In this document: positions 531 through 27,099 of the stretch, one piece after another
Position numbering within the stretch: position 1 is the stretch's first letter
How the letters are laid out: each line of letters begins with the position of its first letter
Source of the DNA: Escherichia phage inny
Sequence record: MN850601.1
Length of the DNA stretch: 64,000 nucleotides
Direction: 5' to 3' (one strand)
Position numbers and translations under genes: made by a program
The notes under the pieces: model-generated
What the model saw: only the letters and a program-made list of their open reading frames with translations
Databases searched by the model: none
Told to the model about the DNA's origin: nothing

Positions 531-532
531 AA

Positions 533-1270: not shown

Positions 1271-1273
1271 CAG

Positions 1274-1909: not shown

Positions 1910-2375
1910 TTTAACTACAATCAAGGTGACTGATCTACCTGTAACAACATCTGTTTCAGACACAGATTATTTTGTAACAGATCAATCAGGCATCACTAAG
2001 AAAACATCATTACGTGTTCTTCTTGCGGGTGCTGGTGTTACACGAAATCGTCTTTCTGCAAGGGGTACTGTTACAAATACCCTAGCTTTAGATATTAGCA
2101 CGGCAGAGTATTTCTCTGCCACTTTATCTAGTCCAACTTGCAGTATTTCATTTAGTAATGTTCCAGTTACAACTAACATTGTTCAAAACTTTACGCTATC
2201 CCTACGTCAAGGCAGTGGAGCAAATAAAGTAACGTGGCCTCAATCTGTTAAATGGAGTTTTGGTCGCGCTCCTGTTTTGAGTTATAAACAGGGAGCTACA
2301 GATATTTTTGAATTTGTTAGTTATGATAATGGAGCTACCTGGATAGGTAGTTTAGTGATGGCAGGAGTGATTTAA
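1902..2375 (+). CDS. hypothetical structural protein
   Basis: 157 aa ORF, 8-nt overlap with upstream gene, ATGA overlap with downstream gene; inside baseplate block. Confidence 0.4.
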   Translation: MADLTTIKVTDLPVTTSVSDTDYFVTDQSGITKKTSLRVLLAGAGVTRNRLSARGTVTNTLALDISTAEYFSATLSSPTCSISFSNVPVTTNIVQNFTLSLRQGSGANKVTWPQSVKWSFGRAPVLSYKQGATDIFEFVSYDNGATWIGSLVMAGVI

Positions 2376-5251: not shown

Positions 5252-5259
5252 GGAAAATA

Positions 5260-7335
5260 ATGAAACAGGCTATTTTTACTGTAACTCGAAATACGAGAGT
5301 AAATGCCAGTTCATTCAGCTATAAGACCGTCGATGGAACGGCGGTCGCTGGTAGAGATTATGTAGCTAAACAGGGAACAGTAACGTTCCCTTCTGATGCA
5401 GATTCTGTTACTGTAGTAGTTGATGTATATGAACGTCCGGCAAACTCTTTAGATCTTTATTTTACTCTTGAGATTACTAGCATAAGTCAAAATAACATGA
5501 TGATCAATGAAGAAATTCGTTGTGTTATTACGACTAATCAATCGAATACAACCCCGCTAACTTGGCCTGTTGTGAAGTCTAGAATGTTTGATCCTAAGTT
5601 TTGGACAATAGATTCTCAAGCAACAGAGAGTTGTTCTATTATCTCTAATGGTGATTCTTTCACAGCAAGAATGGTTAATAGGACAGTGGCTGGTCTTGCT
5701 GGGATTATTTGGTCAACTTACGATAAATATGATCACAAAGGATTAGGCTACCAAGAACATTCTGACTTAAGTAAAGAGAAACTTTGGTTTAAAATGGAAC
5801 TTAGTCAAGGTGTTCCTGGATTAAAAGAAGAAAAATTATTGCCATCCTTAACAGTGACACTGAAGGATGAAACAGTTCATTATGTATCTCTAAACTTTTA
5901 TGCAGAAGAAGTTTCAGAGGACGGTAAAACAGCAATAATCAAATTAGATTTCTCAAATTTAAAATCTGGGCCAGAAAATGATATTGTTGTTGACACTACA
6001 CAGATAGATAACATGTTCTTCTCCTTGATTTCCGCAAGGTATCAAGAAATTGAAGATGTTATACCAGTAGACAATATAGATCTTTCCTTTAAGTTTACCA
6101 TACTAGAGCCTGATACTGGTTACAGTATGATGAATATGGGTAATTTAAATGTTCCGGCGCACACCATAAGAATGTGTACATCTTATGATGATATGTATAA
6201 CCTAACCCCAGAGCGAGTTATTTCTAACACCTATAGATTAGGTTATAGAGATATGATTAACCATTATAATGGTATGTCACACTATTATCAATTTAGTTGG
6301 GATGCTGGATCTAATAAATGGGCTTTGAACAGAACAGAATATTTAAACCCAGCAACAGAAGCCTGGTTTGATAATTTCCACGCTAATGCAAAAGCTATGG
6401 GCTACACAGTAATGAACTCCTTAAGTTTTGAAATTATGAGTACAGTGTGTCCTGTAGAATGGGTACAACATACTTGGAATGATGATCTGGCTGCTACAGG
6501 TTATGAGCCACCAAGTTATGTTTTATCTCCTTCAATTGATGAAGGGATGAATTATTTACAAGGTGTAATAAATAAGATAGCTTCTATATCCGCTGCTAAT
6601 GATCTTCCGGTTATTATTCAGGTTGGTGAACCGTGGTGGTGGTATAACACAGCTACCAATCTACCGTGTATTTATGATTATGCAACCAAAGTTGCATTTA
6701 ATAATGAAACTGGGTTATATGCACAAGATGTTGGTACAGTTAAGAATTATAAAACTGGTACACCATATGATGAATATTATGCATTCCTATCTAAAACATT
6801 AGGACTGCGTGTTGCTAAATTTGCAACAGATACTAAATTAGCCTATCCTGGAGCTAAAGTTACATTATTACCATTTGTGCCATCCATTTTAGGTAATGGT
6901 ATGATGGAGTTTGTTAACTTCCCTAAAGATTATTATATCCCAGAAAACTTTGACTTTTATTGTTCAGAATGTTATGACTGGTTGTTGGAAGGTCAGATGG
7001 AAAGATCTTTCGACGCTATTAAAATACCTAATGAGCAACTAGGTTTTAGTTATGATAAGATACATTATCTTGCAGGGTTTGTTCCAGATGCAACTCTAGC
7101 ACCATTATATGGCTTTGATCCTGAATCAGACTACAGAACATATTTGTGGAAAATGATTATAGGTAATATCGTATTGAACGACCAGAAGTTTGTTGGTTTG
7201 TATCAATACATATGGGCTTATCCACAAATTATGGCAGATTCATTAACTGTTCTTAATTCAAAATCCCAAGTTTTTTATATGGGTAACGTACCTCTGAATG
7301 TCTTTTTACAAGATACAGTATATGTTTCTTCTTAA
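5260..7335 (+). CDS. baseplate-associated protein with N-terminal Calx-beta-like domain
   Basis: 691 aa; N-terminus VDGTAVAGRDYVAKQGTVTFPSDADSVTVVVDVYE matches Calx-beta pattern. Confidence 0.4.
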   Translation: MKQAIFTVTRNTRVNASSFSYKTVDGTAVAGRDYVAKQGTVTFPSDADSVTVVVDVYERPANSLDLYFTLEITSISQNNMMINEEIRCVITTNQSNTTPLTWPVVKSRMFDPKFWTIDSQATESCSIISNGDSFTARMVNRTVAGLAGIIWSTYDKYDHKGLGYQEHSDLSKEKLWFKMELSQGVPGLKEEKLLPSLTVTLKDETVHYVSLNFYAEEVSEDGKTAIIKLDFSNLKSGPENDIVVDTTQIDNMFFSLISARYQEIEDVIPVDNIDLSFKFTILEPDTGYSMMNMGNLNVPAHTIRMCTSYDDMYNLTPERVISNTYRLGYRDMINHYNGMSHYYQFSWDAGSNKWALNRTEYLNPATEAWFDNFHANAKAMGYTVMNSLSFEIMSTVCPVEWVQHTWNDDLAATGYEPPSYVLSPSIDEGMNYLQGVINKIASISAANDLPVIIQVGEPWWWYNTATNLPCIYDYATKVAFNNETGLYAQDVGTVKNYKTGTPYDEYYAFLSKTLGLRVAKFATDTKLAYPGAKVTLLPFVPSILGNGMMEFVNFPKDYYIPENFDFYCSECYDWLLEGQMERSFDAIKIPNEQLGFSYDKIHYLAGFVPDATLAPLYGFDPESDYRTYLWKMIIGNIVLNDQKFVGLYQYIWAYPQIMADSLTVLNSKSQVFYMGNVPLNVFLQDTVYVSS

Positions 7336-11620: not shown

Positions 11621-14034
11621 TGGCGAATTTTCCAACATATCCTGCTACGACACTAGAACAAGGTGTTGATCTGGTTATATTCTCGTCTAACCAGATGCAT
11701 GATGTTATTAATGGGGATGCTACAGCAACTGTAGAAACCGAAACAGGTTTAATACCTACACTGCGTAAAGCACTTGTTGATAACTTCTTCTTTAAGAGTC
11801 CTGTTGCTTGGTCAGCAGGATCAACTGAAACTGTATTTAACCAGTTACGTTATTTTGAAAACGGTATCTTGAGTGGGTACTATTATGCCCCATCTGCCAC
11901 TACTGCGAACCCTGTACCTATGCAGGGCACACCTGTAGGGGACAGTAACTGGACTCTGTACGCTCTTAAAACTGAACAGTTAGCTTCAGATGTGTATCCT
12001 TGGTATTTTAAAGGTGCTACAGGATATGAAACAGAAATCAGTCCTCCTTATATCTTTGATAATGCTATTGTCACCATTAACGGTGTAATTCAGATTCAAG
12101 GTGAAGCATTTACTATCAAAGATAGTAAAATTATTCTGGCAGAACCATTAGGTTTAGATCCGTCTACTGGTCTACCTAACAAATTGTTTGCTTTTATTGG
12201 TAAAACAACAGCCTCTACTTCTTACGTAGAGAAAAACCTTTTGTCATCTACCACTGGTGCAGCAATGGTTGGTCTTCCATCTGGAGGCAACCTGTTACAA
12301 GCTCAATACTTTGTAACGCCTGAGCAGTTTGGTGCAATTGGTGATGGAGTTACCGATGATACTCAAGCAATTTTAAAAACTATTACTTTCGCTAACACGA
12401 ATAACATTCAAGTACGTGCAGATAAGAATTATAGATTCACAAGCTCAATTGCTATGTCTGGTATTCGTTGGTATGGTGGTACATTCACTGGTAACGGTGG
12501 AACAATGATTTCTACTGTGTCCTGTTGGATGGAAAACGTTCGCTTTGAAAAATGTTATGTTAAGATGTTAGGTGGTGATTGCCGATTCTATCGTAATATC
12601 TTCTCCAACGCAACATCTACAGCAGCATTCTTAATGCAAGCAATGACAAGTGAAGGTACGTTGGACTTCAGTTACAACGAAATGTATGGTTGTAAATATG
12701 CGATCCTGCAACAAGGTACTGGAGAAGTAATGACCTACGGGCGTTACTCTAACAACTATATTCACGATATTAAAGGTGATGCTATTGAACTTAACGTAGT
12801 TCAAAAACACTACACTGAAGGTTTGATTATCGAGAATAACCACATTGCTAACGTAGATGCTTCTGGACAAGGGGCAAACTGGGGTATTGGTATTGGTGTA
12901 GCAGGTAGTGGCCCATATGGTGTTGATGTTCCTGATTCACAATATGTACGTAACTTCAGTATCGTTGGGAATAGGGTTTACAATTGCCGTCAATGTTTAC
13001 ACGTTGAAATGGGTAAAAACTTCACAATACGTGATAATGAAGTTTATCCTAACACAGCAGTTTCAACAGGTACAGGTTTAACTACTTGTGGTGTTGCATT
13101 ATACGGATGCCAAGATTTTGAAGTTGATGGTTTAACTGGTTATCTGCTTAATGATCCGTCTGTTTCAACACGCATGGTCTTTATTGATTGGGGTGTTAAC
13201 AGTGGAAGATATGCGGGGCCACCAATTAACTTTACAATTAAGAATTTGGATATTCCAGAATCCTCAATTGAGATTGCAACCTCTGGATCAGATGCTTGGG
13301 AAAACTCTACAATTGTTAGTAATATCAATTGTAATGTTTTTAAATGGCGTGGGCTACCATCTAGCTCTACTTTTAATAATATTCGTTGCCGTAGTATTGA
13401 CTTTATTGGTCAACACGGAAGCGGAGAAGGAAGTGGTGGCGGTTTCTATACTCGCAGCCAATTCACGTATATGAAGTGGGTAGGATGTACAGCACTTAGC
13501 GGAGATGAAACAACAGTTTCTTTTGCTAAAATCTACACTGATCGTTGCGATCAGGTTGGAAATAACTTTGGTGTTCCAACTGCTGTTGATGGTACAGGTC
13601 ATCGTGGGCCAGTTTTAACTACTATTTCTGAACAATATTTTACAGCTTATGATGAATTCCCAGGTGGGCGTGAATTCCCTACTGGAACAGTTATTCATTG
13701 TGCAAGCGGTAAAAAACATGTTGTTACAGTAGGTGGTGCTTTCTTTAGTGCCAACGAGAAAATAAAAGCAACTGTTACAGGTCAAACCTATCTACAGTCT
13801 AATGCTTTAAACTGGGCTAGTAATGGCTACGCTAAAGCAGCAGGTACTAAAATTGTTATTCCAGGTGCAGGTGCAAATGGCGGCGATCTTGTGACAACTA
13901 TAGCACGTGCTACATACGTGACAAATAGTTTGTACACAATAGATATTGCAGATCCAATTGTAACACCTACAGCAGAGAATACACAAATTAAAGCTCTGAA
14001 TCCTGTTACTTTTGTTACTGTCAACAATGCTTAA
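11620..14034 (+). CDS. tailspike with right-handed beta-helix (pectate-lyase-like) domain, putative depolymerase
   Basis: 804 aa; FGAIGDGVTDDTQAI motif typical of pectate lyase superfamily beta-helix proteins; repetitive beta-rich body. Confidence 0.65.
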   Translation: MANFPTYPATTLEQGVDLVIFSSNQMHDVINGDATATVETETGLIPTLRKALVDNFFFKSPVAWSAGSTETVFNQLRYFENGILSGYYYAPSATTANPVPMQGTPVGDSNWTLYALKTEQLASDVYPWYFKGATGYETEISPPYIFDNAIVTINGVIQIQGEAFTIKDSKIILAEPLGLDPSTGLPNKLFAFIGKTTASTSYVEKNLLSSTTGAAMVGLPSGGNLLQAQYFVTPEQFGAIGDGVTDDTQAILKTITFANTNNIQVRADKNYRFTSSIAMSGIRWYGGTFTGNGGTMISTVSCWMENVRFEKCYVKMLGGDCRFYRNIFSNATSTAAFLMQAMTSEGTLDFSYNEMYGCKYAILQQGTGEVMTYGRYSNNYIHDIKGDAIELNVVQKHYTEGLIIENNHIANVDASGQGANWGIGIGVAGSGPYGVDVPDSQYVRNFSIVGNRVYNCRQCLHVEMGKNFTIRDNEVYPNTAVSTGTGLTTCGVALYGCQDFEVDGLTGYLLNDPSVSTRMVFIDWGVNSGRYAGPPINFTIKNLDIPESSIEIATSGSDAWENSTIVSNINCNVFKWRGLPSSSTFNNIRCRSIDFIGQHGSGEGSGGGFYTRSQFTYMKWVGCTALSGDETTVSFAKIYTDRCDQVGNNFGVPTAVDGTGHRGPVLTTISEQYFTAYDEFPGGREFPTGTVIHCASGKKHVVTVGGAFFSANEKIKATVTGQTYLQSNALNWASNGYAKAAGTKIVIPGAGANGGDLVTTIARATYVTNSLYTIDIADPIVTPTAENTQIKALNPVTFVTVNNA

Positions 14035-14037
14035 TTA

Positions 14038-14060
14038 AAAAGGGGCGAAAGCCCCTTTAT
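14038..14060 (+). terminator. rho-independent terminator
   Basis: AGGGGC-GAAA-GCCCCT hairpin followed by TTTAT, directly after tailspike stop. Confidence 0.6.
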
Positions 14061-14075
14061 AAAAGGAGTAGTAAA

Positions 14076-16037
14076 GTGATTTTAACACGTCCAAATAGTG
14101 CCATTGCAGACATGGTAGAGTCTCGCTATAGAAAGCGTAGAAGTTTTGCAAGTGGTTTTACCTTAAGAGATGCTCGTGAAGCATTGCTCTTTGAAACTGA
14201 CGGTAACTACTATCAGTGGAAAGGTTCTCTACCTAAAGTTGTACCTGCTAACTCTACTCCTACATCTACTGGAGGGATTTCAGATACAGCTTGGAAAAAT
14301 GTGGGTAATGCAGATGACATTGCTCAAATAGAATCAGAATTAGATGCTATTGAAGCTGAAATTGAAGATCTTAGAGAATCCATTCCAGAAGCTGGTAAAT
14401 CAGCTTACCAGATTGCCGTAGACAATGGTTTCCAAGGTACTGAGACAGACTGGTTGGCTTCTTTAAAAGGTGATCCAGGTGCTCCATTAAAGCTGCTAGG
14501 GACGCTATCTAATACCAACCAATTACCTACAACTGGAAACAATGCAGGAGATGCATGGATTGTAGGCGAGAATATGTATGCTTGGGATGGTACTGCTTGG
14601 AGAAAAGTAAACTCACAGGGGCCAGAAGGTAAATCAGCTTATCAAGTTTGGCTTGCAGCAGGAAACCAAGGTACAGAACTAGATTATCTTGCTTCAATTA
14701 AAGGTGATAAAGGGGAGCCTGGCCCAGAGGGGCCACAAGGTGTGCCAGGTAACAATGCTAATGGTTTTGATTACCAAGGTGCAGCTAATTCCGTTTCAGA
14801 TCTTCCTTCTGCATCTCCTGGAAACACATCTCAAGCATGGAGTATTGGTACATATCTATACGTGTCAAACGGTGTAGAATGGATCAATATGGGTGCTATA
14901 GTGGGGCCAAAAGGAGATAAAGGCGACAAAGGAGATAAGGGTAACACTGGTGATTCAGCTTATCAAGTCTGGTTAAATGCTGGTAACGTTGGTACTATTG
15001 ACGAATATATTGCCTCTCTGAAAGGAGAAAAAGGTGATAAGGGAGACAAGGGTGATCAAGGTGAGCAGGGTATACAAGGCTTGACGGGGCCAACTGGTGC
15101 AGGGTTGACCATTATTGATATTCTGACTGACACTTCTGAACTACCAGGAACTGGAGAAGATGGTGATGGTTATCTGATCAATAATGAACTTTGGGTTTGG
15201 TTGCAAGGAGCCACACAGTGGACAAATGTTGGTCGTTTAGCTGGTACTCCAATCACTGCAAAAGGACACGTTGCATCTGCAAGTGCACTTCCTCCTACAT
15301 CCAATTACGGTGATGCTTATCTGACGGAAGATACAGGTCATCTTTACATTTACACCTATGATGAACAAACTCAAACTGCTGAATATGTAGATATGGGTAG
15401 TTTGAAAGGTGATAAGGGTGAGAAAGGTGACGCTGGTACTAACGGTACGGATGGCGCAACTTGGATTGTTAAAACAACAGATCCAATCTCTAGGGATGGT
15501 AAACAAGGGGATTATGCCTTTAATATCTCCACTGGCGAGGTGTTCTTAAAAACATCTGCAACTGTCTGGACTTCTCAAGGTACACTACCTAGCATCACAG
15601 ATGCACCTAGTGACGGTAAAATCTATGCTCGTAAAGATGGAGCATGGGAAGAACTCACTAGTTCTGTAGATGGTCAAGATATAGTTCCAACAAAAGTAAC
15701 AACTAATTTTATAGAGGTTACAGCATACACCAACAACTCTGTTACAGGGGACTGGACACCTCCAGGAACACATAACATGAATGTGTTGAATCTTACTGGT
15801 AACTCTACTATAAAAGCATGGCCTGGTGTCGAAGATAGCACAAAACCTAAACCATTCTCTGCAATAGTTTATCTTATCCAAGATGCCACTGGGGGTCGTA
15901 CTGTTACTTTAGACCCATCTTACAAAGTAATTGGTTCTAGTGATATTAATACAGATCCTAACGGAGTAACAATACTACAACTAACATATTGTGGTGTTGG
16001 TGATTACGTGGATGCTATTGTTGCTAAACGCACATAA
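14076..16037 (+). CDS. tail fiber with collagen-like G-X-Y repeats
   Basis: 653 aa, GTG start with AAAAGGAG RBS; runs GDKGDKGDKG and GEKGDKGDKGDQGEQGIQGLTGPTG; threefold repeat of SAYQ(I/V)..(N/D).G.QGTE.D(W/Y)LAS(L/I)KG. Confidence 0.65.
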   Translation: MILTRPNSAIADMVESRYRKRRSFASGFTLRDAREALLFETDGNYYQWKGSLPKVVPANSTPTSTGGISDTAWKNVGNADDIAQIESELDAIEAEIEDLRESIPEAGKSAYQIAVDNGFQGTETDWLASLKGDPGAPLKLLGTLSNTNQLPTTGNNAGDAWIVGENMYAWDGTAWRKVNSQGPEGKSAYQVWLAAGNQGTELDYLASIKGDKGEPGPEGPQGVPGNNANGFDYQGAANSVSDLPSASPGNTSQAWSIGTYLYVSNGVEWINMGAIVGPKGDKGDKGDKGNTGDSAYQVWLNAGNVGTIDEYIASLKGEKGDKGDKGDQGEQGIQGLTGPTGAGLTIIDILTDTSELPGTGEDGDGYLINNELWVWLQGATQWTNVGRLAGTPITAKGHVASASALPPTSNYGDAYLTEDTGHLYIYTYDEQTQTAEYVDMGSLKGDKGEKGDAGTNGTDGATWIVKTTDPISRDGKQGDYAFNISTGEVFLKTSATVWTSQGTLPSITDAPSDGKIYARKDGAWEELTSSVDGQDIVPTKVTTNFIEVTAYTNNSVTGDWTPPGTHNMNVLNLTGNSTIKAWPGVEDSTKPKPFSAIVYLIQDATGGRTVTLDPSYKVIGSSDINTDPNGVTILQLTYCGVGDYVDAIVAKRT

Positions 16038-16039
16038 TC

Positions 16040-16065
16040 AAAGCCCCTTCGGGGGCTTATTGTTT
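16040..16065 (+). terminator. rho-independent terminator
   Basis: AAGCCCC-TTCG-GGGGCTT hairpin followed by ATTGTTT. Confidence 0.55.
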
Positions 16066-16076
16066 AAGGAGATTAA

Positions 16077-18896
16077 ATGTATCCTATTCCTTTATTTATG
16101 TCAACAACATCAGCTTCAGTAGTAACAGCTACATCTATAACTACTTCCTCTATTGGTATTGCAATAGTTGGTGGTAAAAAACAACTGACATACACAGTTA
16201 CACCGGAAGATGGTGCATTATTTGATATAGCTTTTTCATCTTCAGATAATACCAAAATGGTTATAGATAATAGTGGTATGATGGAGTTTGTTGCCGAAGG
16301 TGGTTTTGATGCAATAATGACAGCTAAAAATAATTTAGGTGCTGTCTTAACTGATCAATCTGGTGGTTATGCTTCAGAATTAAGTGTGTACACTGAAAGT
16401 CTATCGGCTATGGATGTAGGCACTACTCAACAGTTGGTTGCTACAATCAGTCCAGAAGGTGCTAAAGACCTTCCAGATATGGTAATTACATACACCACAA
16501 CAGATCCAGAAGTAGCTACTGTAAGCCCTACAGGGTTAATAACTGCTCTTAAAGATGGCGGTTGCCGTATAGGTTGTACTGCAACGTATCAAGGAACAGT
16601 TGTGGCCTCTGATAGTTCTTATTTAGGTGTTAATGCTATTCCTGTTATTTCTAATGTAACAGCCGTGGCAAACAGCTATGGAGACGTTCGTGTTGCTTGG
16701 GATGTAACTGATCCTCTAGATGGTGATACTTATACTGTAGAAGTATTAGATTTAAGTAATAATAGTGTTCAGTGGACTACAACAACCACGAATACTCATG
16801 CTTACTTTGATATCTCTGACTCTATTCCTCTTTATGGGTTTGCTCCAACATACCTTAAAATTAGCGTTAAGAGCACCAAAGCAGCAGCCGTTATCTTTAA
16901 TAACTCAATAGCTACAGATGATTCGTTCATTAAAGAAGTTATTGTCTTTGCTGGACAAGATAACGTAAATGCACACTTTACAGAACTATCTGGTGCAAAT
17001 AAAGCAGCAATGGGTAGCACAACAGCCCGTAATGCATATGCTACGCAACGTGGTTTAGCAAATGCTGAAGTTCTTCCGTTAAATACAGCTTCTGGATCAT
17101 CAGCAGCAGATAAATATGCTGACGATAAAGCTGGAACAGGTACACCAGATAACTACTGGTATGATCTGGATAACACAGCAGATGGGCCATGCTTAACTAA
17201 CTTTATCACTAAAGTCACACCTTATGCAAGTAAGGTTAAAGCAATTATTTGGGGACAAGGTGAAAATGATGCTGTATCAGCATCTTCGACTGTTGCAGGT
17301 AGGTACAGTAACACTACACGTTACCATGATGCTACGATAGCTATCTTTGATAAGATGCGTACAATAGTTCCTGCTTCTCAAGCAAAAATTGTTTGGCAGA
17401 TCCTAGGACGTTCTTATTTATATGGTGTAGAAGTTAATGGTGTGGATTGGCAGAAGTACAGAAATGTACAAAGAACCATCTCTACAGCACGTGATGATGT
17501 TATCATTGGTTCTTGGGTAGATGGTGCTGAACGTTACAGTGGTTATGTTTATGAAGAAGGTATTGATGGTCGTATCCATTATATTTCTTCTGTATACCAA
17601 ACAGCAGCTACAAAACTTGCTAAATCAGCAGCAGACGGTACAGACTTAACATCAACGTCACCTGTTTGGGTTGATATGGCTGTTCCAACTGGAGCAACAG
17701 CTACTTCCCAACCTAATCAAGATACAATTTTAGCATGGGATGCTCAAGGCTATAGTAAACACTACTTCCGTAATATTAACGTCTTAACCGCATCTGTATT
17801 AACTGAACAAACGCTTAATACGAACAGTTATACGTTTACCTATGCAGATCAAGTAGAACAATATGGTTTTGCAGCAGGAACTACTATATTTGATGTTGCA
17901 TATTATGACGAAGCAAATGATGTGTTATCTCCTTTAGTACGTTTTAATGTTAACGTTACAGCAGGAACCGTAGAAGATAAACCTGTCGTGATGGACTATG
18001 ATTTGACGCAAGAAACTCTTCCATCAGATGTTAAGGTTAATGGTGGGAACTCTTTTGCTCGTGCTTCTGGAGATATACTTGTAGCCACTAACACCTTGGT
18101 TGCTCCGTTGGAGTATGTTGGTAATACCCCTGTAGGTAGACGTGTAACAGCTAACACAGCTTCACAAATTTTTGTCAACAACGCCTTAACAAGTGCAAGC
18201 CCGTGGGTAAAGACCAACTTAACTGTTGCAGCTTCATCTGATAAATCTCCGGCTGGAACTACTGCCAATGTATTCAAATTAACTCCGACTACAACCTCTG
18301 GTAGTCATATCTTAACTGCAACATATACTAACGCGTACAACATATCTGCCGGACGTAACTGGTCTGCCTCTGTTTTCTTGAAAGCAAACGGGATTACTAA
18401 GGCCAAACTAAGATTAAAAGCAGGAACTGAAGTTAATGAGGGTACTTTTGATTTAGCAGCAGGTACATTCACAGGAAGTGAAGCTAATATTATATCTATG
18501 GGCAACGGTTGGTATCGTGCTATTCTGCATAAAACAGGGATAGCCAAACAGTCCTTCATAAGTTTTGAAATAATTGCCTTGGATGCAACTGGTGCGGAGA
18601 TTTTCGCTGGAGATGGTACTAGTAACCTTGCAGTTTGGTTGCCACAGCTTGAAGGTGCTTCTACAGGAGAAACATCAAAAGCTGGATCGCCTTATGTCTG
18701 CACATATCCTGGAAATTTAGGAGGAGTATCCTTCACTATACCAAGGAACGGACATACTGGTGTGGATGTTTACTATTCCAACGGAGACGTTGTTCGTGAC
18801 GTATTCTCTGGTACGGCATCTACTTGGACAATAAACTACTCCAGTTTGTACGATTGGGGATCAGTCTTTATTACAGGTTTGAAATATTACGACTAA
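16077..18896 (+). CDS. tail spike/fiber with Ig-like domain and SASA/SGNH-type carbohydrate esterase-like domain
   Basis: 939 aa; Big_2-like segment (TYTTTDPEVATVSPTGLITALKDG); esterase-like VIVFAGQDNVNAHF and IIWGQGENDA. Confidence 0.6.
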   Translation: MYPIPLFMSTTSASVVTATSITTSSIGIAIVGGKKQLTYTVTPEDGALFDIAFSSSDNTKMVIDNSGMMEFVAEGGFDAIMTAKNNLGAVLTDQSGGYASELSVYTESLSAMDVGTTQQLVATISPEGAKDLPDMVITYTTTDPEVATVSPTGLITALKDGGCRIGCTATYQGTVVASDSSYLGVNAIPVISNVTAVANSYGDVRVAWDVTDPLDGDTYTVEVLDLSNNSVQWTTTTTNTHAYFDISDSIPLYGFAPTYLKISVKSTKAAAVIFNNSIATDDSFIKEVIVFAGQDNVNAHFTELSGANKAAMGSTTARNAYATQRGLANAEVLPLNTASGSSAADKYADDKAGTGTPDNYWYDLDNTADGPCLTNFITKVTPYASKVKAIIWGQGENDAVSASSTVAGRYSNTTRYHDATIAIFDKMRTIVPASQAKIVWQILGRSYLYGVEVNGVDWQKYRNVQRTISTARDDVIIGSWVDGAERYSGYVYEEGIDGRIHYISSVYQTAATKLAKSAADGTDLTSTSPVWVDMAVPTGATATSQPNQDTILAWDAQGYSKHYFRNINVLTASVLTEQTLNTNSYTFTYADQVEQYGFAAGTTIFDVAYYDEANDVLSPLVRFNVNVTAGTVEDKPVVMDYDLTQETLPSDVKVNGGNSFARASGDILVATNTLVAPLEYVGNTPVGRRVTANTASQIFVNNALTSASPWVKTNLTVAASSDKSPAGTTANVFKLTPTTTSGSHILTATYTNAYNISAGRNWSASVFLKANGITKAKLRLKAGTEVNEGTFDLAAGTFTGSEANIISMGNGWYRAILHKTGIAKQSFISFEIIALDATGAEIFAGDGTSNLAVWLPQLEGASTGETSKAGSPYVCTYPGNLGGVSFTIPRNGHTGVDVYYSNGDVVRDVFSGTASTWTINYSSLYDWGSVFITGLKYYD

Positions 18897-18931: not shown

Positions 18932-19363
18932 TTAATCAGTGAAAATTACGCTTACATCTTCTTTAGAGAAGAGTTTATGATCTTCACCTTTTGTCTCAAG
19001 AGTTTCATACAGGTTAAGAAGTTCTGAAACATCTTTCTCTACCAGTTTCTTCAATGTTGCAATTTTCTGTTTGCGACTCTTAATACGTTCAGCTACAACC
19101 TTACGCTGGTATCCGGCAGTACGATAACCTGAGAAAGTTACACCAGTGAGACTTGCAGTTACAGGATCGTAGTGACGTTCAATCTGAAACTTATTAAAAG
19201 GTACAGCGTCATCACGAATAATCTTACCGCCATTACTTACCTGACGAAGACCAGTAACTTGTTCCAGTCGTGCCATAGAAATCTTTGGAGACAGACCAGA
19301 GTCCAGGTTCATACCGTTGTTAATCAGTGCTTTCAGGGTGATTTTGCTGTTCAGTGTACTCAT
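18932..19363 (-). CDS. hypothetical protein
   Basis: 143 aa; GGAGG RBS located inside 3' end of upstream MTase gene, 44-nt overlap. Confidence 0.45.
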   Translation of the reverse strand: MSTLNSKITLKALINNGMNLDSGLSPKISMARLEQVTGLRQVSNGGKIIRDDAVPFNKFQIERHYDPVTASLTGVTFSGYRTAGYQRKVVAERIKSRKQKIATLKKLVEKDVSELLNLYETLETKGEDHKLFSKEDVSVIFTD

Positions 19364-20051
19364 TTAGTCGTTCCTCCGCTTGCTTAAAAATATTTACATC
19401 GGCTTCACAGCCTAAGTATTCTCTACCTGTTAAAAGTGCCGCAACTTGTGTTGTTGCACTTCCAGAGAAGAAGTCTAAGACTACATCTCCTTCGTTGGTG
19501 TGTATATTAATAAGGTCACAAAACAAAGTCAAGTGTTTTTGTGTTGGATGAAAACGATCTGCTCCTTGATAGATAGGATACTCAAACACACCCTTATGGT
19601 AGGAAGCATTGAAGGTTGGCTTCGAACCTTTAACACAAACAATAGCCATCTCTTTAGCGTTACTAAGATAGTTAACACCACTGTTGATGGGTACAGGGTT
19701 TGTTTTAATCCATTCGATAGTACGGAACATACGAAAACCAAGCGGTTCAAGGATTTCACGTAGCTCCTGGATCTTCCAGATATCATACCAAACTATGCAA
19801 GTACCACCTTTTCTAAGCACCCTGTAGGCTTCTTTGAATACTTCTTTAAAATAAGGAATATCTACAACATCCCAATCACCGAAGTTGTAAGATACACGGA
19901 ATCTATCCGTATCTTTTCCAGTAGGCTCTCCAGACTGAAAATTTGTGTCACGAGAAATAGCATATGGTGGGTCAGTAAGAATCAAATCTACACTATTGCT
20001 TTCGAGGGTTTGCAGGTAGTTTAATGCAGTGTTGTTTACAAATTCGCTCAT
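19320..20051 (-). CDS. DNA methyltransferase (amino-MTase; N6-adenine or N4-cytosine)
   Basis: N-terminal LILTDPPYAI (DPPY motif IV) and C-terminal VVLDFFSGSATT (FxGxG motif I); no adjacent restriction gene seen. Confidence 0.8.
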   Translation of the reverse strand: MSEFVNNTALNYLQTLESNSVDLILTDPPYAISRDTNFQSGEPTGKDTDRFRVSYNFGDWDVVDIPYFKEVFKEAYRVLRKGGTCIVWYDIWKIQELREILEPLGFRMFRTIEWIKTNPVPINSGVNYLSNAKEMAIVCVKGSKPTFNASYHKGVFEYPIYQGADRFHPTQKHLTLFCDLINIHTNEGDVVLDFFSGSATTQVAALLTGREYLGCEADVNIFKQAEERLNEYTEQQNHPESTD

Positions 20052-20065
20052 TATATCTCCTTCAA

Positions 20066-20092
20066 AGAAAAGGAGCCGTTAGGCTCCTTATA
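20066..20092 (-). terminator. rho-independent terminator downstream of SSB gene
   Basis: GGAGCC-(GTTA)-GGCTCC hairpin followed on minus strand by TTTTCTTT. Confidence 0.5.
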
Positions 20093-20111
20093 TTCACACA
20101 ATACTTAACTA

Positions 20112-21059
20112 TTAGAAACAGTGCAGGAAGTTTCGACCATACTGCAAACCAATAGGAGCAAATGGGATATCATCATCGAAATCTTGAACAACAGGTTCTG
20201 GTTCTTTCGGTGCTGGTTCTTTCTTCTCTACTTTTTTAGTTTCTTTCTTAACTTCTTGTACTGGGGTAGACATTCCACGGATAGCAGCAGCTACTTTATC
20301 AGACAAAGCAAGAACTTCACGAGCAGCTTCAATAATCTCTTCTGCCGTTACAGTTTTACCTGTATGATCACGACAAGCGTTAAGAATTGCGTGTCCAACT
20401 GAAGCACCAAGATCATAGTCAGTCACATCAACGCCACGATCTTTAGCAATTTCTGCTTTCAGAGTAACAGTTGCAGATTGTACCACACCAGCCAAGTCGA
20501 AAGCATCACCTTTCACACCAGCACGTAGAAGCTCCAGAGCGCCGTTTACAGCGTGTCCTGTTTCAATCCCTACGGTATCACGTTTTTTGTAGTTAGGCTT
20601 GCTACCTTCGTTATTAGATGGCTTATTTCCACCTTTTGAAGAAGATTGTGCTTGCTGAACACCTTCTGTTGAAAGAATAGTGATTTTACCTTTAGAGGAA
20701 TTGTAGTATGTTTTGCCATTCCATTCAGAAGGTTTAACATCCATAGTTAGTTCTACACCTTTTTCGATAGTAACCCACTTATCACCATCTTTAACTTGCA
20801 GGTTTTCATGTTCTGGGTGCAGTTTAACTTCACCTAGGCTAACCCAAACACCTTTATCATCAGCACCAGCACCTTTCTCTTTAATAAGCAGGGATGCTTT
20901 GTGAGTTGATTCAATTTTCTTATCTGGTTGACCTGCAACCTTAATATAAGAGACTTTCATTTCATCAAACTTATCCAGTTTGACATATTCAACGATACCT
21001 TCAGCCCAGAATGCTTCTTTTTTAGTACGACGGTCGATTTCAGAATTAATTACTGGCAT
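20112..21059 (-). CDS. ssb: single-stranded DNA-binding protein
   Basis: 315 aa; Gly/Ser/Lys-rich linker and acidic DFDDDIPF motif identical to the E. coli SSB C-terminal tip, here followed by 15 extra residues. Confidence 0.7.
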   Translation of the reverse strand: MPVINSEIDRRTKKEAFWAEGIVEYVKLDKFDEMKVSYIKVAGQPDKKIESTHKASLLIKEKGAGADDKGVWVSLGEVKLHPEHENLQVKDGDKWVTIEKGVELTMDVKPSEWNGKTYYNSSKGKITILSTEGVQQAQSSSKGGNKPSNNEGSKPNYKKRDTVGIETGHAVNGALELLRAGVKGDAFDLAGVVQSATVTLKAEIAKDRGVDVTDYDLGASVGHAILNACRDHTGKTVTAEEIIEAAREVLALSDKVAAAIRGMSTPVQEVKKETKKVEKKEPAPKEPEPVVQDFDDDIPFAPIGLQYGRNFLHCF

Positions 21060-21075
21060 AAATTCTCCTCTATAA

Positions 21076-21474
21076 TTACATTACTTTAACACAAAACTCT
21101 CGTAAAAGAGTAGCGTCAGTTTCTTCCAACAGGTATTTACCAAGACCAATACCAAATCCTATTTCACCACTTTCGAAATGGAGGATTTGTATCTTTTCTC
21201 CACCAAGATTAATTACTTTTGCTTTTCCAGGATTATCCAAAACATCTCGTATTGTATCCTGTAGTAACATAAGCTCACGTTTTGTGATAGTGGTTTCAGA
21301 TATCTCTTTGTTTTCTACTCTCACTGTTAAACGATTGTATCCACCAAAGAGACATAGTATTTGAATAAAAAAGGTATTATCTTGAGGTTCAACATCTTTT
21401 TTGGTTAGCTCAAGACGATTAGTTTCTCTACTGTAGAACGTCTCGACTAAGATTTTAGAACGATTATCTGTCAT
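21076..21474 (-). CDS. hypothetical protein
   Basis: 132 aa ORF with GAGGA RBS. Confidence 0.45.
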   Translation of the reverse strand: MTDNRSKILVETFYSRETNRLELTKKDVEPQDNTFFIQILCLFGGYNRLTVRVENKEISETTITKRELMLLQDTIRDVLDNPGKAKVINLGGEKIQILHFESGEIGFGIGLGKYLLEETDATLLREFCVKVM

Positions 21475-21517
21475 TCAAGTCCTCATAATAACACATAATT
21501 ATAATGTTTGTCAACAC

Positions 21518-22111
21518 TTAAATTTTAAATTCTTCATTGTTAAATGAATCCAGTGTACGTACTTCTGGTTCTTTGGGAATGAAAACGTCTTTTACAAAAC
21601 GGAACATAGGGAAACGTTCTGCCATTTTACGGACGTGTGCTTCTTTACCCGTGTATCGGTGATTAATAGTACAAATATTAGTTTTCAGTGCAAATTCAAA
21701 ATCTGGATGATATACGTAATTTTGACCATCCCAGTAACACAAGCAAATAGCTACATCAAAGTTCCATACGATTTCACTGCGTACACCTTCTTCCATGATC
21801 ATAAAGTTAAACTTAAGATCTTTATAGTATGCTTCAAATACCCATTTCAAATGTGGTAGTTCGGCATAAGTGTGTTCTGTTTGCTTAGTAAGTTGTTTAA
21901 CATTACGTGCACCAACACCCAACATCAAAAATTTCTCTACTAGTACGAGTGTATTGTGGTTAGGCATACGCAAGTAAATATCAATATCTTGCGCAGGTTT
22001 CTCTAATCGCCAGTCACGTACAGCGCCGCCAGCTACAATTGCAAACGGATCTACCAGTTGGCACATACGTAATACTTCTAAAGCTCGTACTTTTTGATCT
22101 TCAATATTCAT
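21518..22111 (-). CDS. minimal Pol-beta-superfamily nucleotidyltransferase
   Basis: 197 aa; VAGGAVRDWRLEKPAQDIDIYL = GGxVRD plus DxD catalytic pattern as in CCA-adding/polyA polymerase head domains. Confidence 0.5.
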   Translation of the reverse strand: MNIEDQKVRALEVLRMCQLVDPFAIVAGGAVRDWRLEKPAQDIDIYLRMPNHNTLVLVEKFLMLGVGARNVKQLTKQTEHTYAELPHLKWVFEAYYKDLKFNFMIMEEGVRSEIVWNFDVAICLCYWDGQNYVYHPDFEFALKTNICTINHRYTGKEAHVRKMAERFPMFRFVKDVFIPKEPEVRTLDSFNNEEFKI

Positions 22112-22250
22112 ATTTTCTCCTATCTCTTATGGTCTTTGCGTTATTCTAGATGTTCAAACATCTAATTATGAAATGGTTTAAAAGTGCGGAACAACCTTGG
22201 CAATCACAGATTGTTCCACATAAAAACTCCTTATAAAACAATATGTTAGA

Positions 22251-24830
22251 CTAGTGACAAGACGCCCATGAGTTACCAACATCGTAACCAGCAGTGAGAG
22301 GTACATTAAGATTGTAATACTCACCAGCTTTATTAACAGCGATAGATGCTAATTCTCCAGCACGACTGTAGGCTGTAAACCAACCACCTTTCGGAGATTC
22401 ATGTACGTTAGCCCAAATCTTGCCAGTACGTTTCTCTTCCTCTTCTTTCCAGGCATTAACCTTATCCAAACATTCTTTATCAATTTTCTTTTGTTCTTCT
22501 GGATCATCAACTTGAGTCCAACCTAAAGATTCTTTAGAAAACCATTTAAAATGCACCAGATCACGAGTTACTTCAAGCTGTGCTTCATCGTGATATGCAA
22601 TCATTTGTTGAACGAATGACTTATTTTTCCAGTCATCAACAAAAAAGTCAACAGCTAATCCTTCTTCTTCGATAAGATCGTCGTAGATAACCATTGCTCT
22701 TTTTGCACAAATAACACCACCACTCTGGAACAGAGAGTTAAGTATTGCGTGTGCAGATCGTGTAGGTACTTTTCTACCATCAATACCAAGAATGTATTTC
22801 TTACCTGTTTTAACCCAAAAATCATGCAGACGTTCTTTAAGAAGCGCAAGAGGTTTTGCAGCTTCCCAGAAAGCATCGTATACAAGTTGTCCTGTATACA
22901 TATCACTACCTATAGTTTTTGCTACTTTTGCAGCTTGAGCACCATAAGTAATACCATACTTAACAGATTTAGCAGGGCTTCGTTCAAACTTACGACCAAT
23001 AGTGTCAGAAATACGTCGAGCCATCATTGTATGAACATCATTAGGTTTTTCCAATAATAGAGCATTACAATATTCGTGTGGTTCCTGCTCGTACCGCCAA
23101 CAGTAGTGTGATTCTATTTTTGCCTCAAGAGAATCAAAGTCATAACCAATTTGGAAGTATTTTGGAACTTCTACACCAAATAAGTTACGCATTTCATATC
23201 CGTACAGAGATGTTACACGTGGGATATTTGCTACTAACCTATGTTTCATACGAGACGTAGCTGCATCACACGTTGCAGCAGGGGTTGGTATACGACCATC
23301 AGCCCTTACTGCCGCCAGATAACCTTTATCGTAATCCTCTTCATCTTCTTCCCAATCAGCACCACCACCTAGGATAGAGTTTCTACGATGTTTATACGTA
23401 AGATATTGCACAATCTGCGTAGCATAAGGAAACTTTTCACCCAGTGCTTCCAAGTTAGGACAAATATCTTTCTCTTGCCCTTTTGTAAAGGAAGGGTTAG
23501 TAAGCACTTTAACACCACGACCTTTAGCTTTAGCAATACGATCTCTTAGTTTCCATTCCAAAGTTTCTGGTGTGCACTCCAGATGATCACATCTGTCCTG
23601 GCAGAAGTTAGATGCTAATGTTTGATCAACATAGTCACGAATAGCTTTCTCCATTTGTGCTTCATCTTTCTTAATCTTAGTGCCAGATTTAAGAGTGATA
23701 TCTTTATCTTTATATTCAGATGGACTCCAACCTAAACCAACTAACCAGTTTTTAATATGTGTAGTGTCGTCTAAAGTAGCAGGTACTGTAGGATCACAAA
23801 TAGGTTCTTCTGCTGGAATAGGGAGTTTAAACTCTTTACCTAATGCAAATAGCCACCAACCATCTTCTTTTTGTACAAGTTCACCAGAATGTTTCTCTGC
23901 AAACTTTATCATGTTACTTGAAGGTTCACCATTCTTTTTAAACTGTAGTTTAGGTGGAATGAATGATTTCAAATAACCTTTAGTAGCAGGTTTAGGAGGT
24001 AACACAGGTTCTGCCTCTAAACGACATGCTTCCATTCGAGCATCCAGATCACGAATATTATCTTCTGCTTGTTTCATATTGAAAGCAAAGCCACGGTGCT
24101 CTTGACGTGTAATAATATCAGCTACACGTTGTTCTAAGTTAAAGGGTTCAGACCATTTATTATAATCACCCCACTCTTCCATCAAATAACGGAATACTGC
24201 GGTGTTAGCTTTGTTATCGTAAATACAGTAATACAGCATATCTGCTGCAAATGTTTTAAATCTTTCAGTTTCAGGAATGTTTTTTCTAAAATCAATTTTA
24301 ACATCCCCTCCAGCTTTCTTAGATAACTCTGCCAGACTATGACCACCGAAGCGATCAGGGTTTAGTGTCTTACTTAAGATCATAGTATCACAAATTTCAA
24401 TGTTACTATTACCCCAAGTATTGTACTTAATACTGTAGTTGAGTTTAAAAAATAATTTAATTGCCAGTAAGTCAAAGTTAATGATGTTATGTCCAACTAC
24501 TTTGGTAATTTTATAGTTTGAATTACCTTTAAATTTACCTGTTCCATTTACAAAATCAGGAAAATCTTTAAGAGGGAAATGGGTATATTCTAAATGCTCA
24601 TATTCCTCCAGTCGGTATTCATACTTTCCGTCAGTCTCAACATACGGACGACCATCGAAAAGATATTTATCACCATCATGGAAAGCAATAATCTCTCCAG
24701 TATCATGACTTTCGCACACAATACAGTGCATTGCAAAACTATCTTTTAAACGATATGGACTTGCCAAGTAATCTACACTTTCGTCATTAAGCAAGTTGTT
24801 ACTTTCAATGTCGAAAGTAAAAGCTCCCAT
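22251..24830 (-). CDS. family A DNA polymerase with 3'-5' exonuclease domain
   Basis: 859 aa; exo motif FDIESNNL near N-terminus; polymerase motifs DFDSLEAK, KSVKYGITYG and HDE; AGGAGG RBS. Confidence 0.85.
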   Translation of the reverse strand: MGAFTFDIESNNLLNDESVDYLASPYRLKDSFAMHCIVCESHDTGEIIAFHDGDKYLFDGRPYVETDGKYEYRLEEYEHLEYTHFPLKDFPDFVNGTGKFKGNSNYKITKVVGHNIINFDLLAIKLFFKLNYSIKYNTWGNSNIEICDTMILSKTLNPDRFGGHSLAELSKKAGGDVKIDFRKNIPETERFKTFAADMLYYCIYDNKANTAVFRYLMEEWGDYNKWSEPFNLEQRVADIITRQEHRGFAFNMKQAEDNIRDLDARMEACRLEAEPVLPPKPATKGYLKSFIPPKLQFKKNGEPSSNMIKFAEKHSGELVQKEDGWWLFALGKEFKLPIPAEEPICDPTVPATLDDTTHIKNWLVGLGWSPSEYKDKDITLKSGTKIKKDEAQMEKAIRDYVDQTLASNFCQDRCDHLECTPETLEWKLRDRIAKAKGRGVKVLTNPSFTKGQEKDICPNLEALGEKFPYATQIVQYLTYKHRRNSILGGGADWEEDEEDYDKGYLAAVRADGRIPTPAATCDAATSRMKHRLVANIPRVTSLYGYEMRNLFGVEVPKYFQIGYDFDSLEAKIESHYCWRYEQEPHEYCNALLLEKPNDVHTMMARRISDTIGRKFERSPAKSVKYGITYGAQAAKVAKTIGSDMYTGQLVYDAFWEAAKPLALLKERLHDFWVKTGKKYILGIDGRKVPTRSAHAILNSLFQSGGVICAKRAMVIYDDLIEEEGLAVDFFVDDWKNKSFVQQMIAYHDEAQLEVTRDLVHFKWFSKESLGWTQVDDPEEQKKIDKECLDKVNAWKEEEEKRTGKIWANVHESPKGGWFTAYSRAGELASIAVNKAGEYYNLNVPLTAGYDVGNSWASCH

Positions 24831-24871
24831 TCTCCCTCCTTAAAATATTTCTAAAGTCTTAATTTGTTAAT

Positions 24872-24900
24872 ACTGTACCACAAATTAATTGTTTTGTAAA
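24872..24900 (-). promoter_or_regulatory. candidate sigma70-like promoter upstream of DNA polymerase gene
   Basis: Minus-strand TTTACA, 17-nt spacer, TACAGT; overlaps upstream hairpin. Confidence 0.25.
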
Positions 24901-24922
24901 GGGGCTTTCGCCCCTTCTTGTT
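24898..24922 (-). terminator. hairpin terminator
   Basis: GGGGC-TTTC-GCCCC hairpin between upstream gene stop and polymerase gene. Confidence 0.45.
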
Positions 24923-25326: not shown

Positions 25327-27099
25327 TTAATAAGAACCAGCAGAAATATTTTCTGGGTTACTTGTGTATTGATCGTAATCGTGAAGTGTAGCTGTTTTAA
25401 TCTCATAAAAGAAACTACCTGCTGCACCAGTCTCTGAAAACTCACGGTTCTTTAGAATGTAGCAATATGTGCGGTTACGTTCCATAGGATCTTCAGCTTG
25501 TTTATCACGCTCCAGCGCAATTGTGATACCAGCACCTTTAGCAAGGAAGCTACTACCCATTGCATCATCTTCTACAATATGTTCATTACTATTGTTAGAA
25601 GACTTTTTAACGTGTGAAATTACAACAATGGTTATTGCGTACTCTTTCATAATGCGTTTCAGCCACGTCGCAAGTTCCTCTTGTTGTGACACGTCCATAC
25701 CAGAAAGCAAGTCAGAATAAGGGTCGATAACAAGAATGGTTACTCCGAAATAAATAATCATTTCCAGAACCTTCTCTTTAATCACATCTACGTTAGCTCC
25801 ACGATCATCACAAACATAGAAACGTGGTGTTCCATCTTCTCGTTCGTAAAAATCACGAATCTTTTCTTCATTATCTTTTAAAATCTTTTCCTTCTCTTCT
25901 TTCGTTTTACGGTGAAGAGGGATATGCAAGAATGAAGACAGTAAGTTACGAGAATACTTCTTATACGTTGCCTCCAAAGATAAAATACCAAGAGTATGTT
26001 CTGGGTGTGCAAGAATAATGTGTTTCGTAATCTCGTTAACCAACAGTGTCTTACCGATACTTGTTTTTGCAAGTATAACAGTAATTTCTTCTTCTACCAA
26101 GCCTCCACCTAACATATTTGAAGCAACACGCATGAATGGAGGAAGGGTGATCATTTTAGCTTCCAGGCATTCCAAGGCTGCTTCATACAGTACGTTAGAA
26201 GCGTAAACACCAGCAGGTGTGTACAGTTTAGCTTTGAAAAAGCGATCAATAAAATGATCAATTTTTCCTTCTACTAGTGCCTGGTTAGGATCTTTAACAT
26301 CAGTTAGTTCCATCACGTAAACTTTATTACGTGGTAAGATTTTAACACATTTCTCAACTGCTGCACGTCCAGCTTCATCATTATCCATACATAGAACAAT
26401 CTTTTTAAATTGGTCTAAGAATTTATAACGATGTTGAAGCTGCTTATGCAGAGATGTTTCGCCACAAGTACCAGATACTACAGCAGGAACAGGATATTTA
26501 CCACCCTTGTTATAATCTTTTAGCATCTGTGTTGCAGCCAGCATATCGTGTTCACCACCAACGATTAGAATAGTACCGCTGTGGTTACGATATTTAAACT
26601 CCCCAAAAAGATCACAATCCTTTCCTGTTTCACCGATAGGATGTGAGAAATCTTTTGGATCGATACGTTGTTTATACCCAGCAATATTGTAATCTTTAGT
26701 TGTAGGGTATAGTGTTGAAATTACTTCGCCAGTAGCTTCATCGTACATATAACGTACACCGAAAGGCTTAGAGATATCTTCACGAATACCGCGATAACCT
26801 TTTGGATTAGTTCCAGTGCTGGCTTTTAGTTTATCATGTACTTCTGGATTAAACTCACTACCCAAGATATCCTCCTCTTCAATTTCTTCGCCGTGTGCAT
26901 TTAACCATTTTTGATCAGGGATAGTAAAGCCACAAGAAAAACAATGTGCGCCTCGATGGTCTTCATCGGCATCTAAGCCATATACCATCAAATTGTTTTG
27001 TGATCGATCACGCCCTCCTTTCATACAACGAGGACACCCAGTATGTCCTTCTTGACTCAGATCAATGTTATACCCATATTTATTTACAACATAAGACAC
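25327..27099 (-). CDS. bifunctional primase-helicase (T7 gp4-like)
   Basis: 590 aa; N-terminal zinc-binding CPRC...CFSCGF; central TOPRIM-like region; C-terminal helicase with Walker A ILAKTSIGKT and Walker B ILVIDPYSD. Confidence 0.75.
   Translation of the reverse strand: MSYVVNKYGYNIDLSQEGHTGCPRCMKGGRDRSQNNLMVYGLDADEDHRGAHCFSCGFTIPDQKWLNAHGEEIEEEDILGSEFNPEVHDKLKASTGTNPKGYRGIREDISKPFGVRYMYDEATGEVISTLYPTTKDYNIAGYKQRIDPKDFSHPIGETGKDCDLFGEFKYRNHSGTILIVGGEHDMLAATQMLKDYNKGGKYPVPAVVSGTCGETSLHKQLQHRYKFLDQFKKIVLCMDNDEAGRAAVEKCVKILPRNKVYVMELTDVKDPNQALVEGKIDHFIDRFFKAKLYTPAGVYASNVLYEAALECLEAKMITLPPFMRVASNMLGGGLVEEEITVILAKTSIGKTLLVNEITKHIILAHPEHTLGILSLEATYKKYSRNLLSSFLHIPLHRKTKEEKEKILKDNEEKIRDFYEREDGTPRFYVCDDRGANVDVIKEKVLEMIIYFGVTILVIDPYSDLLSGMDVSQQEELATWLKRIMKEYAITIVVISHVKKSSNNSNEHIVEDDAMGSSFLAKGAGITIALERDKQAEDPMERNRTYCYILKNREFSETGAAGSFFYEIKTATLHDYDQYTSNPENISAGSY

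Follow-up and report, generated by a model that had tools for sequence, protein, structure and literature searches.

A stand-alone nucleotidyltransferase with a class II-type head in the replication module of Escherichia phage inny and of other phages

Class II CCA-adding enzymes and class II poly(A) polymerases (structures 1miv, 4wc2 and 3aql) are proteins of 340-520 amino acids (aa), in which the catalytic head is joined to a neck, a body and a tail, domains for binding the tRNA or the RNA primer. Their RRD and EDxxR motifs (motifs B and D) position and select CTP and ATP. Much smaller phage proteins, among them proteins of Autographiviridae, are annotated 'tRNA nucleotidyltransferase' and collected in the families PHROG 1614 and PHROG 10174. 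Such small 'tRNA nucleotidyltransferases' have been reported for 37 of the 46 Autographiviridae of Pectobacterium in one study (PMC7693777). Here we analysed a stretch of 64,000 nt from Escherichia phage inny (record MN850601.1; hereafter the window) and focused on a member of these families, a nucleotidyltransferase (NTase) of 197 aa encoded at 21518..22111 on the minus strand, which differs from the class II enzymes in lacking neck, body and tail and resembles them in sequence only in motif A. Its family is very large, apparently restricted to phages, similar to a stripped-down CCA-adding enzyme or poly(A) polymerase with intact catalytic residues, and found beside the polymerase gene in unrelated phage groups.

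Two further small proteins invite comparison. Gp22 of the Klebsiella Drulisvirus fHe-Kpn01 (182 aa) is toxic in E. coli, the only experimental result for a protein of this type, and is assigned to CCA-adding enzymes by HHpred and Phyre2 (PMC7291057). Its toxicity would agree with an unregulated tailing of nucleic acids. Its hG[GS] and [DE]h[DE]h motifs lie at positions similar to those of the inny NTase, so that it may belong to the NTase family; since the first 25 kb of the related phage KP34 contain no NTase homologue, we do not tie Gp22 to the family. The second, 2la3 of S. pneumoniae (NP_344798.1), is a stand-alone 'CCA-adding enzyme head domain' protein of 191 aa, bacterial rather than phage-encoded, with 9% identity to the inny NTase and no Pfam or PHROG match in common with it in the scans made.

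The inny gene begins with an ATG that is preceded, at a distance of 5 nt, by the ribosome-binding site AGGAG (22117..22121, minus strand), a feature that is also annotated in phi92, and its limits are exactly those proposed in the initial annotation. It is the orthologue of phi92 gp158. The source phage is a phi92-like myophage (Justusliebigvirus, Stephanstirmvirinae); over bases 20000-25000 of the window the identity is 99.0% with Escherichia phage ALITA and 98-99% with phi92 and dozens of other isolates. At the protein level the identity is 98.5-100% across dozens of phi92-like phages and 30-53% in distant phages. As the protein is near-identical within the phi92-like group, recognisable in distant phages and conserved in its catalytic residues, its open reading frame (ORF) is a genuine gene and did not arise by chance. 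RefSeq labels phi92 gp158 'nucleotidyltransferase', and members of the 90%-identity cluster of the NTase also bear the name 'putative tRNA nucleotidyl transferase/poly(A) polymerase'; the identical protein is already in GenBank/RefSeq with the label first given to it from the inny sequence, and the gene is known at the level of annotation.

In profile searches the NTase matched PHROG 1614 ('nucleotidyltransferase') over residues 7-193 with E=2e-34 and PHROG 10174 (same label) with E=2e-26. A 99%-identical protein and many homologues carry the precomputed Pfam domain PF26128, an accession that no paper was found to mention in a literature search. The Pfam family PolyA_pol (PF01743) reached 19.1 bits against a gathering cut-off of 23, with residues 26-81 aligned to profile positions 3-59 of 126, and the NCBIfam CCA models reached 14-15 bits against cut-offs of 281-290. 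An AlphaFold2 model calculated with 75 homologues (predicted local distance difference test, pLDDT, 88.2; predicted template modelling score, pTM, 0.83) displays the alpha-beta-alpha-beta-alpha-beta order of the minimal NTase fold. When this model was compared with the PDB by Foldseek, the top 39 matches were without exception class II enzymes that add CCA or A, or poly(A) polymerase I of E. coli, and 165-200 columns were aligned. The protein had been proposed to be a Pol-beta-type NTase with the head of CCA-adding enzymes and of poly(A) polymerases; superfamily and class II lineage are upheld by PHROG profile and fold, but the protein is not a class II enzyme proper, PolyA_pol remaining below its threshold. 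It had further been called too short for the usual body and tail domains, and indeed the ordered part of the model ends near residue 175, the matched enzymes having 342-517 aa. We consider it very likely that the protein is a stand-alone NTase of the Pol-beta superfamily and of the class II lineage. It has the catalytic head plus a short C-terminal alpha/beta subdomain, and it does without the body and tail that hold the tRNA and without the motifs that select C or A.

Other branches of the superfamily fit less well. A minimal template-directed gap filler of the Pol X type, as exemplified by the 174-aa Pol X of African swine fever virus, would serve DNA repair or the completion of Okazaki fragments. 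We regard this as very improbable here: the GGAVRD of motif A is a hallmark of class II, as is the N-terminal helix, the scores of class II enzymes are higher, and the Pfam scan of the NTase lists no Pol X family at E<=1 and hence detects no DNA-binding element of the helix-hairpin-helix or thumb type. The closest similarity is not to the CD-NTases (cGAS/DncV-like), the gene context is not of the CBASS type, and a PADLOC scan gave no match. Neither a sequence-family match to DUF1814 (MenT/AbiEii) nor an adjoining antitoxin-like gene was found; those toxins belong to toxin-antitoxin loci, whereas the inny NTase sits in a phage replication module.

The signature GGAVRD...DIDI, which had first drawn attention to the protein, is borne out by the sequence. 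Motif A comprises A27, G28, G29, A30, V31, R32 and D33 (22013..22033, minus strand), followed by W34, and the catalytic carboxylates D42-I43-D44 (21980..21988, minus strand), with I45 after them, lie on strand beta2 (residues 43-48 in the model), giving the spacing AGGAVRD-x8-DID. The protein thus has both the general superfamily pattern (hG[GS] before a helix, and [DE]h[DE]h on the strand that follows) and the class II form of motif A (GGxVRD...DxD, here GGAVRD-x8-DID). Motif A aligns with the GGAVRD of the CCA-adding enzymes 6ibp and 7otr, with 9kma of A. thaliana, and with E. coli Cca and PcnB. A candidate for the third carboxylate that binds metal in the Pol-beta fold is E93, at the position expected for it on strand beta4 (21833..21835, minus strand; residues 88-96 in the model). 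Residue conservation was counted over 258 family members: G28, G29, D42 and D44 are each kept in 257, W34 in 256, Y82 in 252, R32 in 251 and K162 in 249 (with R in a further 7), and the position of E93 is occupied by E or D in 205. With catalytic residues nearly invariant over so many members, the NTase is probably enzymatically active. Motif B (RRD) was found in only 1 of the 258 members and motif D (EDxxR, sought as ED..R) in 17, and both are absent from the inny protein. A mapping of these motifs by eye (WNFDVAIC onto RRDLTINA, and GKEAHVRKMAERF onto GEDPLRVLRVARF) was dropped as evidence, a profile of the C-terminal part of the family having found nothing in the E. coli enzymes.

The lack of motifs B and D, and of body and tail domains, bears on the explanation that the protein is a minimal tRNA nucleotidyltransferase, repairing or completing the 3'-CCA of phage or host tRNAs, e.g. 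after damage by a defence nuclease. Phi92-like phages possess 15-16 tRNA genes elsewhere in the genome (PMC12210895); none was found in the window. The suggestion that related phages be checked for tRNA genes was followed. Phage ALITA has 15 tRNA genes, and 15 of 15 encode the 3'-CCA, so that none of these tRNAs requires CCA to be added de novo. Vibrio phage 402E50-1 (NTase at 31.6% identity) and Aeromonas phage phiAS7 (NTase of PHROG 1614) have no tRNA gene in their complete genomes and yet encode an NTase. The host also has its own Cca, and there is no RNA ligase cluster among the recurrent neighbours of the NTase gene (RNA-repair genes were not sought genome-wide). Given the encoded CCAs, the tRNA-less genomes and the missing motifs and domains, a dedicated role in tRNA-CCA synthesis is unlikely, and we give the explanation as a whole a low probability. 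MenT toxins act on tRNA ends without body or tail domains, and for this reason an action of the NTase on host tRNA ends stays conceivable. In ALITA (94..6648 of the fetched locus) the tRNA cluster lies directly downstream of a NAD-salvage pair, ribose-phosphate pyrophosphokinase and nicotinamide phosphoribosyltransferase.

The size of the family became apparent when its profile was searched against 1.84 billion representatives: 2,413 clusters (50% identity) were found with E<=1e-3, and 896 clusters passed E<=1e-10. Stand-alone proteins of 175-230 aa make up almost all of the family. Isolates that carry the gene include Stephanstirmvirinae, many Vibrio phages, Zobellviridae, Aeromonas phages and a cyanophage. 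In the structure database BFVD the same fold occurs in proteins of 165-225 aa from phages of Pectobacterium, Dickeya, Providencia, Pseudomonas, Caulobacter and Aeromonas and from giant viruses. A peptide-pattern scan of 185,579 species genomes returned a single match, on an 8-kb contig of a metagenome-assembled genome (MAG), which, for the one pattern used, is suggestive but not proof of the absence of the family from bacteria. The T7-like members of PHROG 1614 are only remotely similar to the group of phi92 and the Vibrio phages: gp03 of Aeromonas phage phiAS7, one of the proteins with this fold in BFVD, belongs to PHROG 1614 with E=2e-37 and aligns to the family profile with E=6e-5 over 121 columns (hhalign). 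Some longer homologues (284-400 aa) have an N-terminal extension that matches either nothing or only a small-ORF PHROG without function; these are probably merged gene calls. At the other end of the size range, the homologue of Vibrio phage ICP1_2006_A (ORF223; 4959..5378 of the fetched locus) has only 137-139 aa, matches residues 3-126 of the inny NTase and lacks the C-terminal subdomain with the near-invariant K162.

A regularity is found in the gene neighbourhood. Immediately upstream of the inny NTase gene and in the same orientation lies the gene of a family A (T7-type) DNA polymerase of 859 aa (22251..24830, minus strand; Pfam DNA_pol_A at 3e-13, PHROG 17 at 1e-111), and further upstream a 590-aa protein (25327..27099) that clusters with primase-helicases (representative with Toprim and DnaB_C). 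For a broader view, we called ORFs and clustered proteins in 80 IMG/VR and 9 isolate loci, and dereplication of the NTases at 70% identity left 51 lineages. Counting was confined to the 35 lineages with 4.5 kb or more of sequence on each side and with contigs of 30 kb or longer, and the identities of the gene clusters were checked. A DNA polymerase gene is present within 5 kb of the NTase gene in 24 of the 35 lineages (5.6 expected by random placement), a primase-helicase gene in 20, an exonuclease gene in 7 and an ATP-dependent DNA ligase gene in 3. In phiAS7, too, gp03 adjoins the polymerase gene, as does the NTase gene in inny, the order there being primase, helicase, small hypothetical ORF, ligase, NTase, polymerase. 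The NTase gene belongs to the DNA-replication module of the phages and is conserved there. Away from it, phiAS7 has neighbouring genes for a polynucleotide kinase and a metallophosphoesterase (12022..14121 of the fetched locus), possible end-healing enzymes that could bear on the substrate of the NTase.

On the other side, the gene had been placed next to a gene for single-stranded DNA-binding protein (SSB). The polymerase side of this description is right; on the SSB side, an ORF for a 132-aa protein (21076..21474, minus strand; PHROG 16560, no PDB or Pfam match) intervenes, and the SSB label of the next gene is weakly supported. This gene (20112..21059, minus strand) encodes a 315-aa SSB-like protein of PHROG 4477, a family with no function assigned, in which a weak match to an SSB PHROG covers the C-terminus only; it contains the SSB-type tip motif DFDDDIPF, and some GenBank records call it SSB. 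In 10 of 10 phi92/rV5-like loci the 132-aa gene is at position +1 and the SSB-like gene at +2 from the NTase gene, and the order polymerase, small ORFs, NTase, 132-aa protein, SSB-like protein recurs in Klebsiella phage FKP3, Citrobacter phage Tr1, Pseudomonas phage PsgM04F and Phapecoctavirus nepoznato, whose NTases share 35-53% identity with that of inny. The 132-aa neighbour would be of interest if the NTase nucleotidylated a protein (AMPylation, as by MntA or GlnE) or a small molecule (a metabolite, as by the aminoglycoside and lincosamide NTases). This is, in our view, hardly probable: the 10 loci with this neighbour represent only 6 of the 51 lineages, and structures of such enzymes match clearly worse than class II enzymes acting on RNA ends.

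A DNA methyltransferase gene (19320..20051) follows 1.5 kb downstream of the NTase gene, and its presence recalls another group of minimal NTases of the Pol-beta superfamily in lytic phages. The MNT-like NTases of phages BCP1 and Av05 are reported to make 3'3'-cyclic GMP-AMP (3'3'-cGAMP) and cyclic di-AMP (c-di-AMP), to block TIR-STING, and to be encoded near DNA methyltransferase and NAD-salvage genes (preprint, doi 10.1101/2022.06.09.495361). By analogy, the inny NTase might make a free product from NTPs alone, i.e. a cyclic or linear oligonucleotide of the signalling type, directed against host defence. In ICP1, the NTase homologue lies about 2 kb from a phosphoribosyl pyrophosphate (PRPP) synthetase gene and nadV, a pair similar to the NAD-salvage pair of ALITA. 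The published precedent, however, comes from a different minimal NTase family, of the MNT/KNT branch and not of the class II branch to which the inny protein is assigned, and its motif GS-x-AY[GAN]T-x4-SDxD was found in 0 of the 258 members. Membership in the cyclic-dinucleotide-making phage NTases was set aside on this ground, and the synthesis of a free product is, on balance, an unlikely explanation.

The C-terminal tails may connect the NTase with the proteins encoded around it. Residues 176-197 of the inny protein (21521..21586, minus strand; ..LDSFNNEEFKI) form an acidic tail with aromatic residues that is modelled with low confidence (pLDDT 53, then 48, in the last 20 residues), and the last ~20 residues are predicted to be disordered. 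The last residue is F, W or Y in 20% of 150 family representatives as compared to 10% of 2,371 neighbouring ORFs (Fisher p=5e-4), and 8% of the representatives combine an acidic stretch with a terminal aromatic residue as compared to 3.6% (p=0.013). The NTases of Tr1, PsgM04F and nepoznato end in ..DIPW or ..DDIPW, those of other lineages in ..DVFNF, ..DDAWDDDKI or ..IPF. The ..DDIPW tips resemble the ..DDDIPF tip of the adjacent SSB-like protein, and the primase-helicase and the SSB-like protein of those loci have acidic, aromatic tips as well. In phage T7 the acidic aromatic tails of gp2.5 and gp4 dock onto the DNA polymerase; with similar tips at the NTase loci, the NTase may by analogy join the interaction network of the replication proteins through its tail. 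One could go further and imagine a terminal transferase that is associated with the replisome, recruited by its tail to the polymerase, the primase-helicase or the SSB network, and that adds nucleotides without template to primers, nascent strands or exposed 3' ends. In support of such an enzyme, the genes of two divergent branches, the phi92/Vibrio-phage group and the T7-like group, adjoin the polymerase gene, and some members have SSB-like ..DDIPW tips. We know of no phage for which an accessory untemplated terminal transferase of the replisome has been described, and we judge this variant to have only a small chance of being correct.

The SSB-like proteins themselves vary at this end. In inny the DFDDDIPF is internal and is followed by 15 further residues, APIGLQYGRNFLHCF. 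The 15-residue appendix is also present in the SSB-like proteins of Tr1 and PsgM04F, while those of FKP3, nepoznato and several metagenomic relatives stop exactly at ..DDDIPF. The burial of the tip would be expected to change the partner binding of the SSB-like protein.

The reading we favour is less specific about the replisome. The fold, the family, the conserved metal-binding residues, the restriction to phages and the gene neighbourhood are what the analysis shows; the activity of the NTase, what it modifies and any tethering are parts that we infer. The enzyme would transfer nucleotides, without a template, onto free 3'-OH ends of nucleic acids when the infection is in its replication phase. 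Homology favours RNA 3' ends as the acceptor, primer or DNA ends being possible as well, and the acidic, aromatic C-terminal tail may tether the enzyme to other replication proteins. That the protein is an active template-independent terminal nucleotidyltransferase of this kind, working with the replication module, appears possible but rather doubtful to us; the reading as a whole, i.e. the classification plus the tailing of 3' ends, we hold tentatively and at a little below an even chance. A number of points weigh against it. In other families, minimal NTases make cyclic dinucleotides or attach nucleotides to proteins or small molecules, and the inny protein could do likewise. A literature search found no biochemical study of a characterised family member. 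Phage genes cluster by expression time, so that proximity to the polymerase gene is no proof of a role in replication. When the family profile was compared with E. coli Cca and PcnB by hhalign and hmmalign, only motif A could be aligned, and a profile of residues 108-176 gave no match to either protein, scoring no better than shuffles. The position of E93 is occupied by N or Q in 34 of the 258 members (13%). Finally, the enrichment of the tails is modest (odds ratio 2.2) and was computed from sequences that are not phylogenetically independent, and the tail of inny itself (..EEFKI) does not end in an aromatic residue.

As a genome feature the NTase gene is ordinary, and its interest lies in the biochemistry. 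If replication intermediates or host RNA 3' ends were indeed the substrate, this would be a new enzymatic step in phage replication or host takeover. The toxicity of the similar Gp22, with the reservation on its family membership made above, may also interest those who search for phage-derived growth inhibitors.

The polymerase gene next to the NTase gene differs among isolates. It is uninterrupted in inny, whereas phi92, UAB_1, cardinal and others are ~733 bp longer at this place and match in 2 pieces. In phi92 the gene (gp159) measures 3315 bp (14250..17564 of the fetched locus), and in nepoznato the polymerase gene measures 3570 bp. The longer genes look like the result of a mobile insertion, an intein or a homing element, that varies among isolates.

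Sequence signals around the NTase gene are of minor weight. An inverted repeat had been noted just upstream at about 22149..22164; it exists, but its position was one base off and it is slightly longer, a palindrome TAGATGTT-CA-AACATCTA with perfect 8-nt arms and a 2-nt spacer at 22147..22164, 35 nt upstream of the start codon. It sits in the spacer of a weak promoter-like match (9/12), and such matches are no commoner in the NTase region than in shuffles. Perfect inverted repeats with arms of 8 nt and spacers of 0-4 nt number 21 in the window, whereas mononucleotide shuffles have 7.3 on average (range 1-14), an enrichment of short palindromes by a factor of about three in this stretch of phage DNA. 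Being one of 21 such repeats and recurring, among 97 fetched loci, only in phi92, the palindrome is no evidence of regulation; as an operator it was set aside, since it is also missing from diverged relatives and the promoter match that it overlaps is weak. The RNA folding of the intergenic region was no better than that of shuffles (z = -1.17). Directly after the stop codon of the DNA polymerase gene lies a terminator-like hairpin (22185..22220, minus strand) with 13-nt arms of 85% complementarity and with CUUUU after it; for phage Paula, the record has a 'terminator' feature somewhere within the matching 5-kb stretch. In the 43-nt gap between the NTase stop codon and the 132-aa gene, we found a candidate sigma70-type promoter (21485..21514, minus strand; TTGACA-18-TATTAT with an upstream TG), a near-consensus match at 11 of 12 positions by consensus comparison only. 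With this match in the gap, the NTase gene and its downstream neighbours may, as far as the sequence indicates, form separate transcription units.

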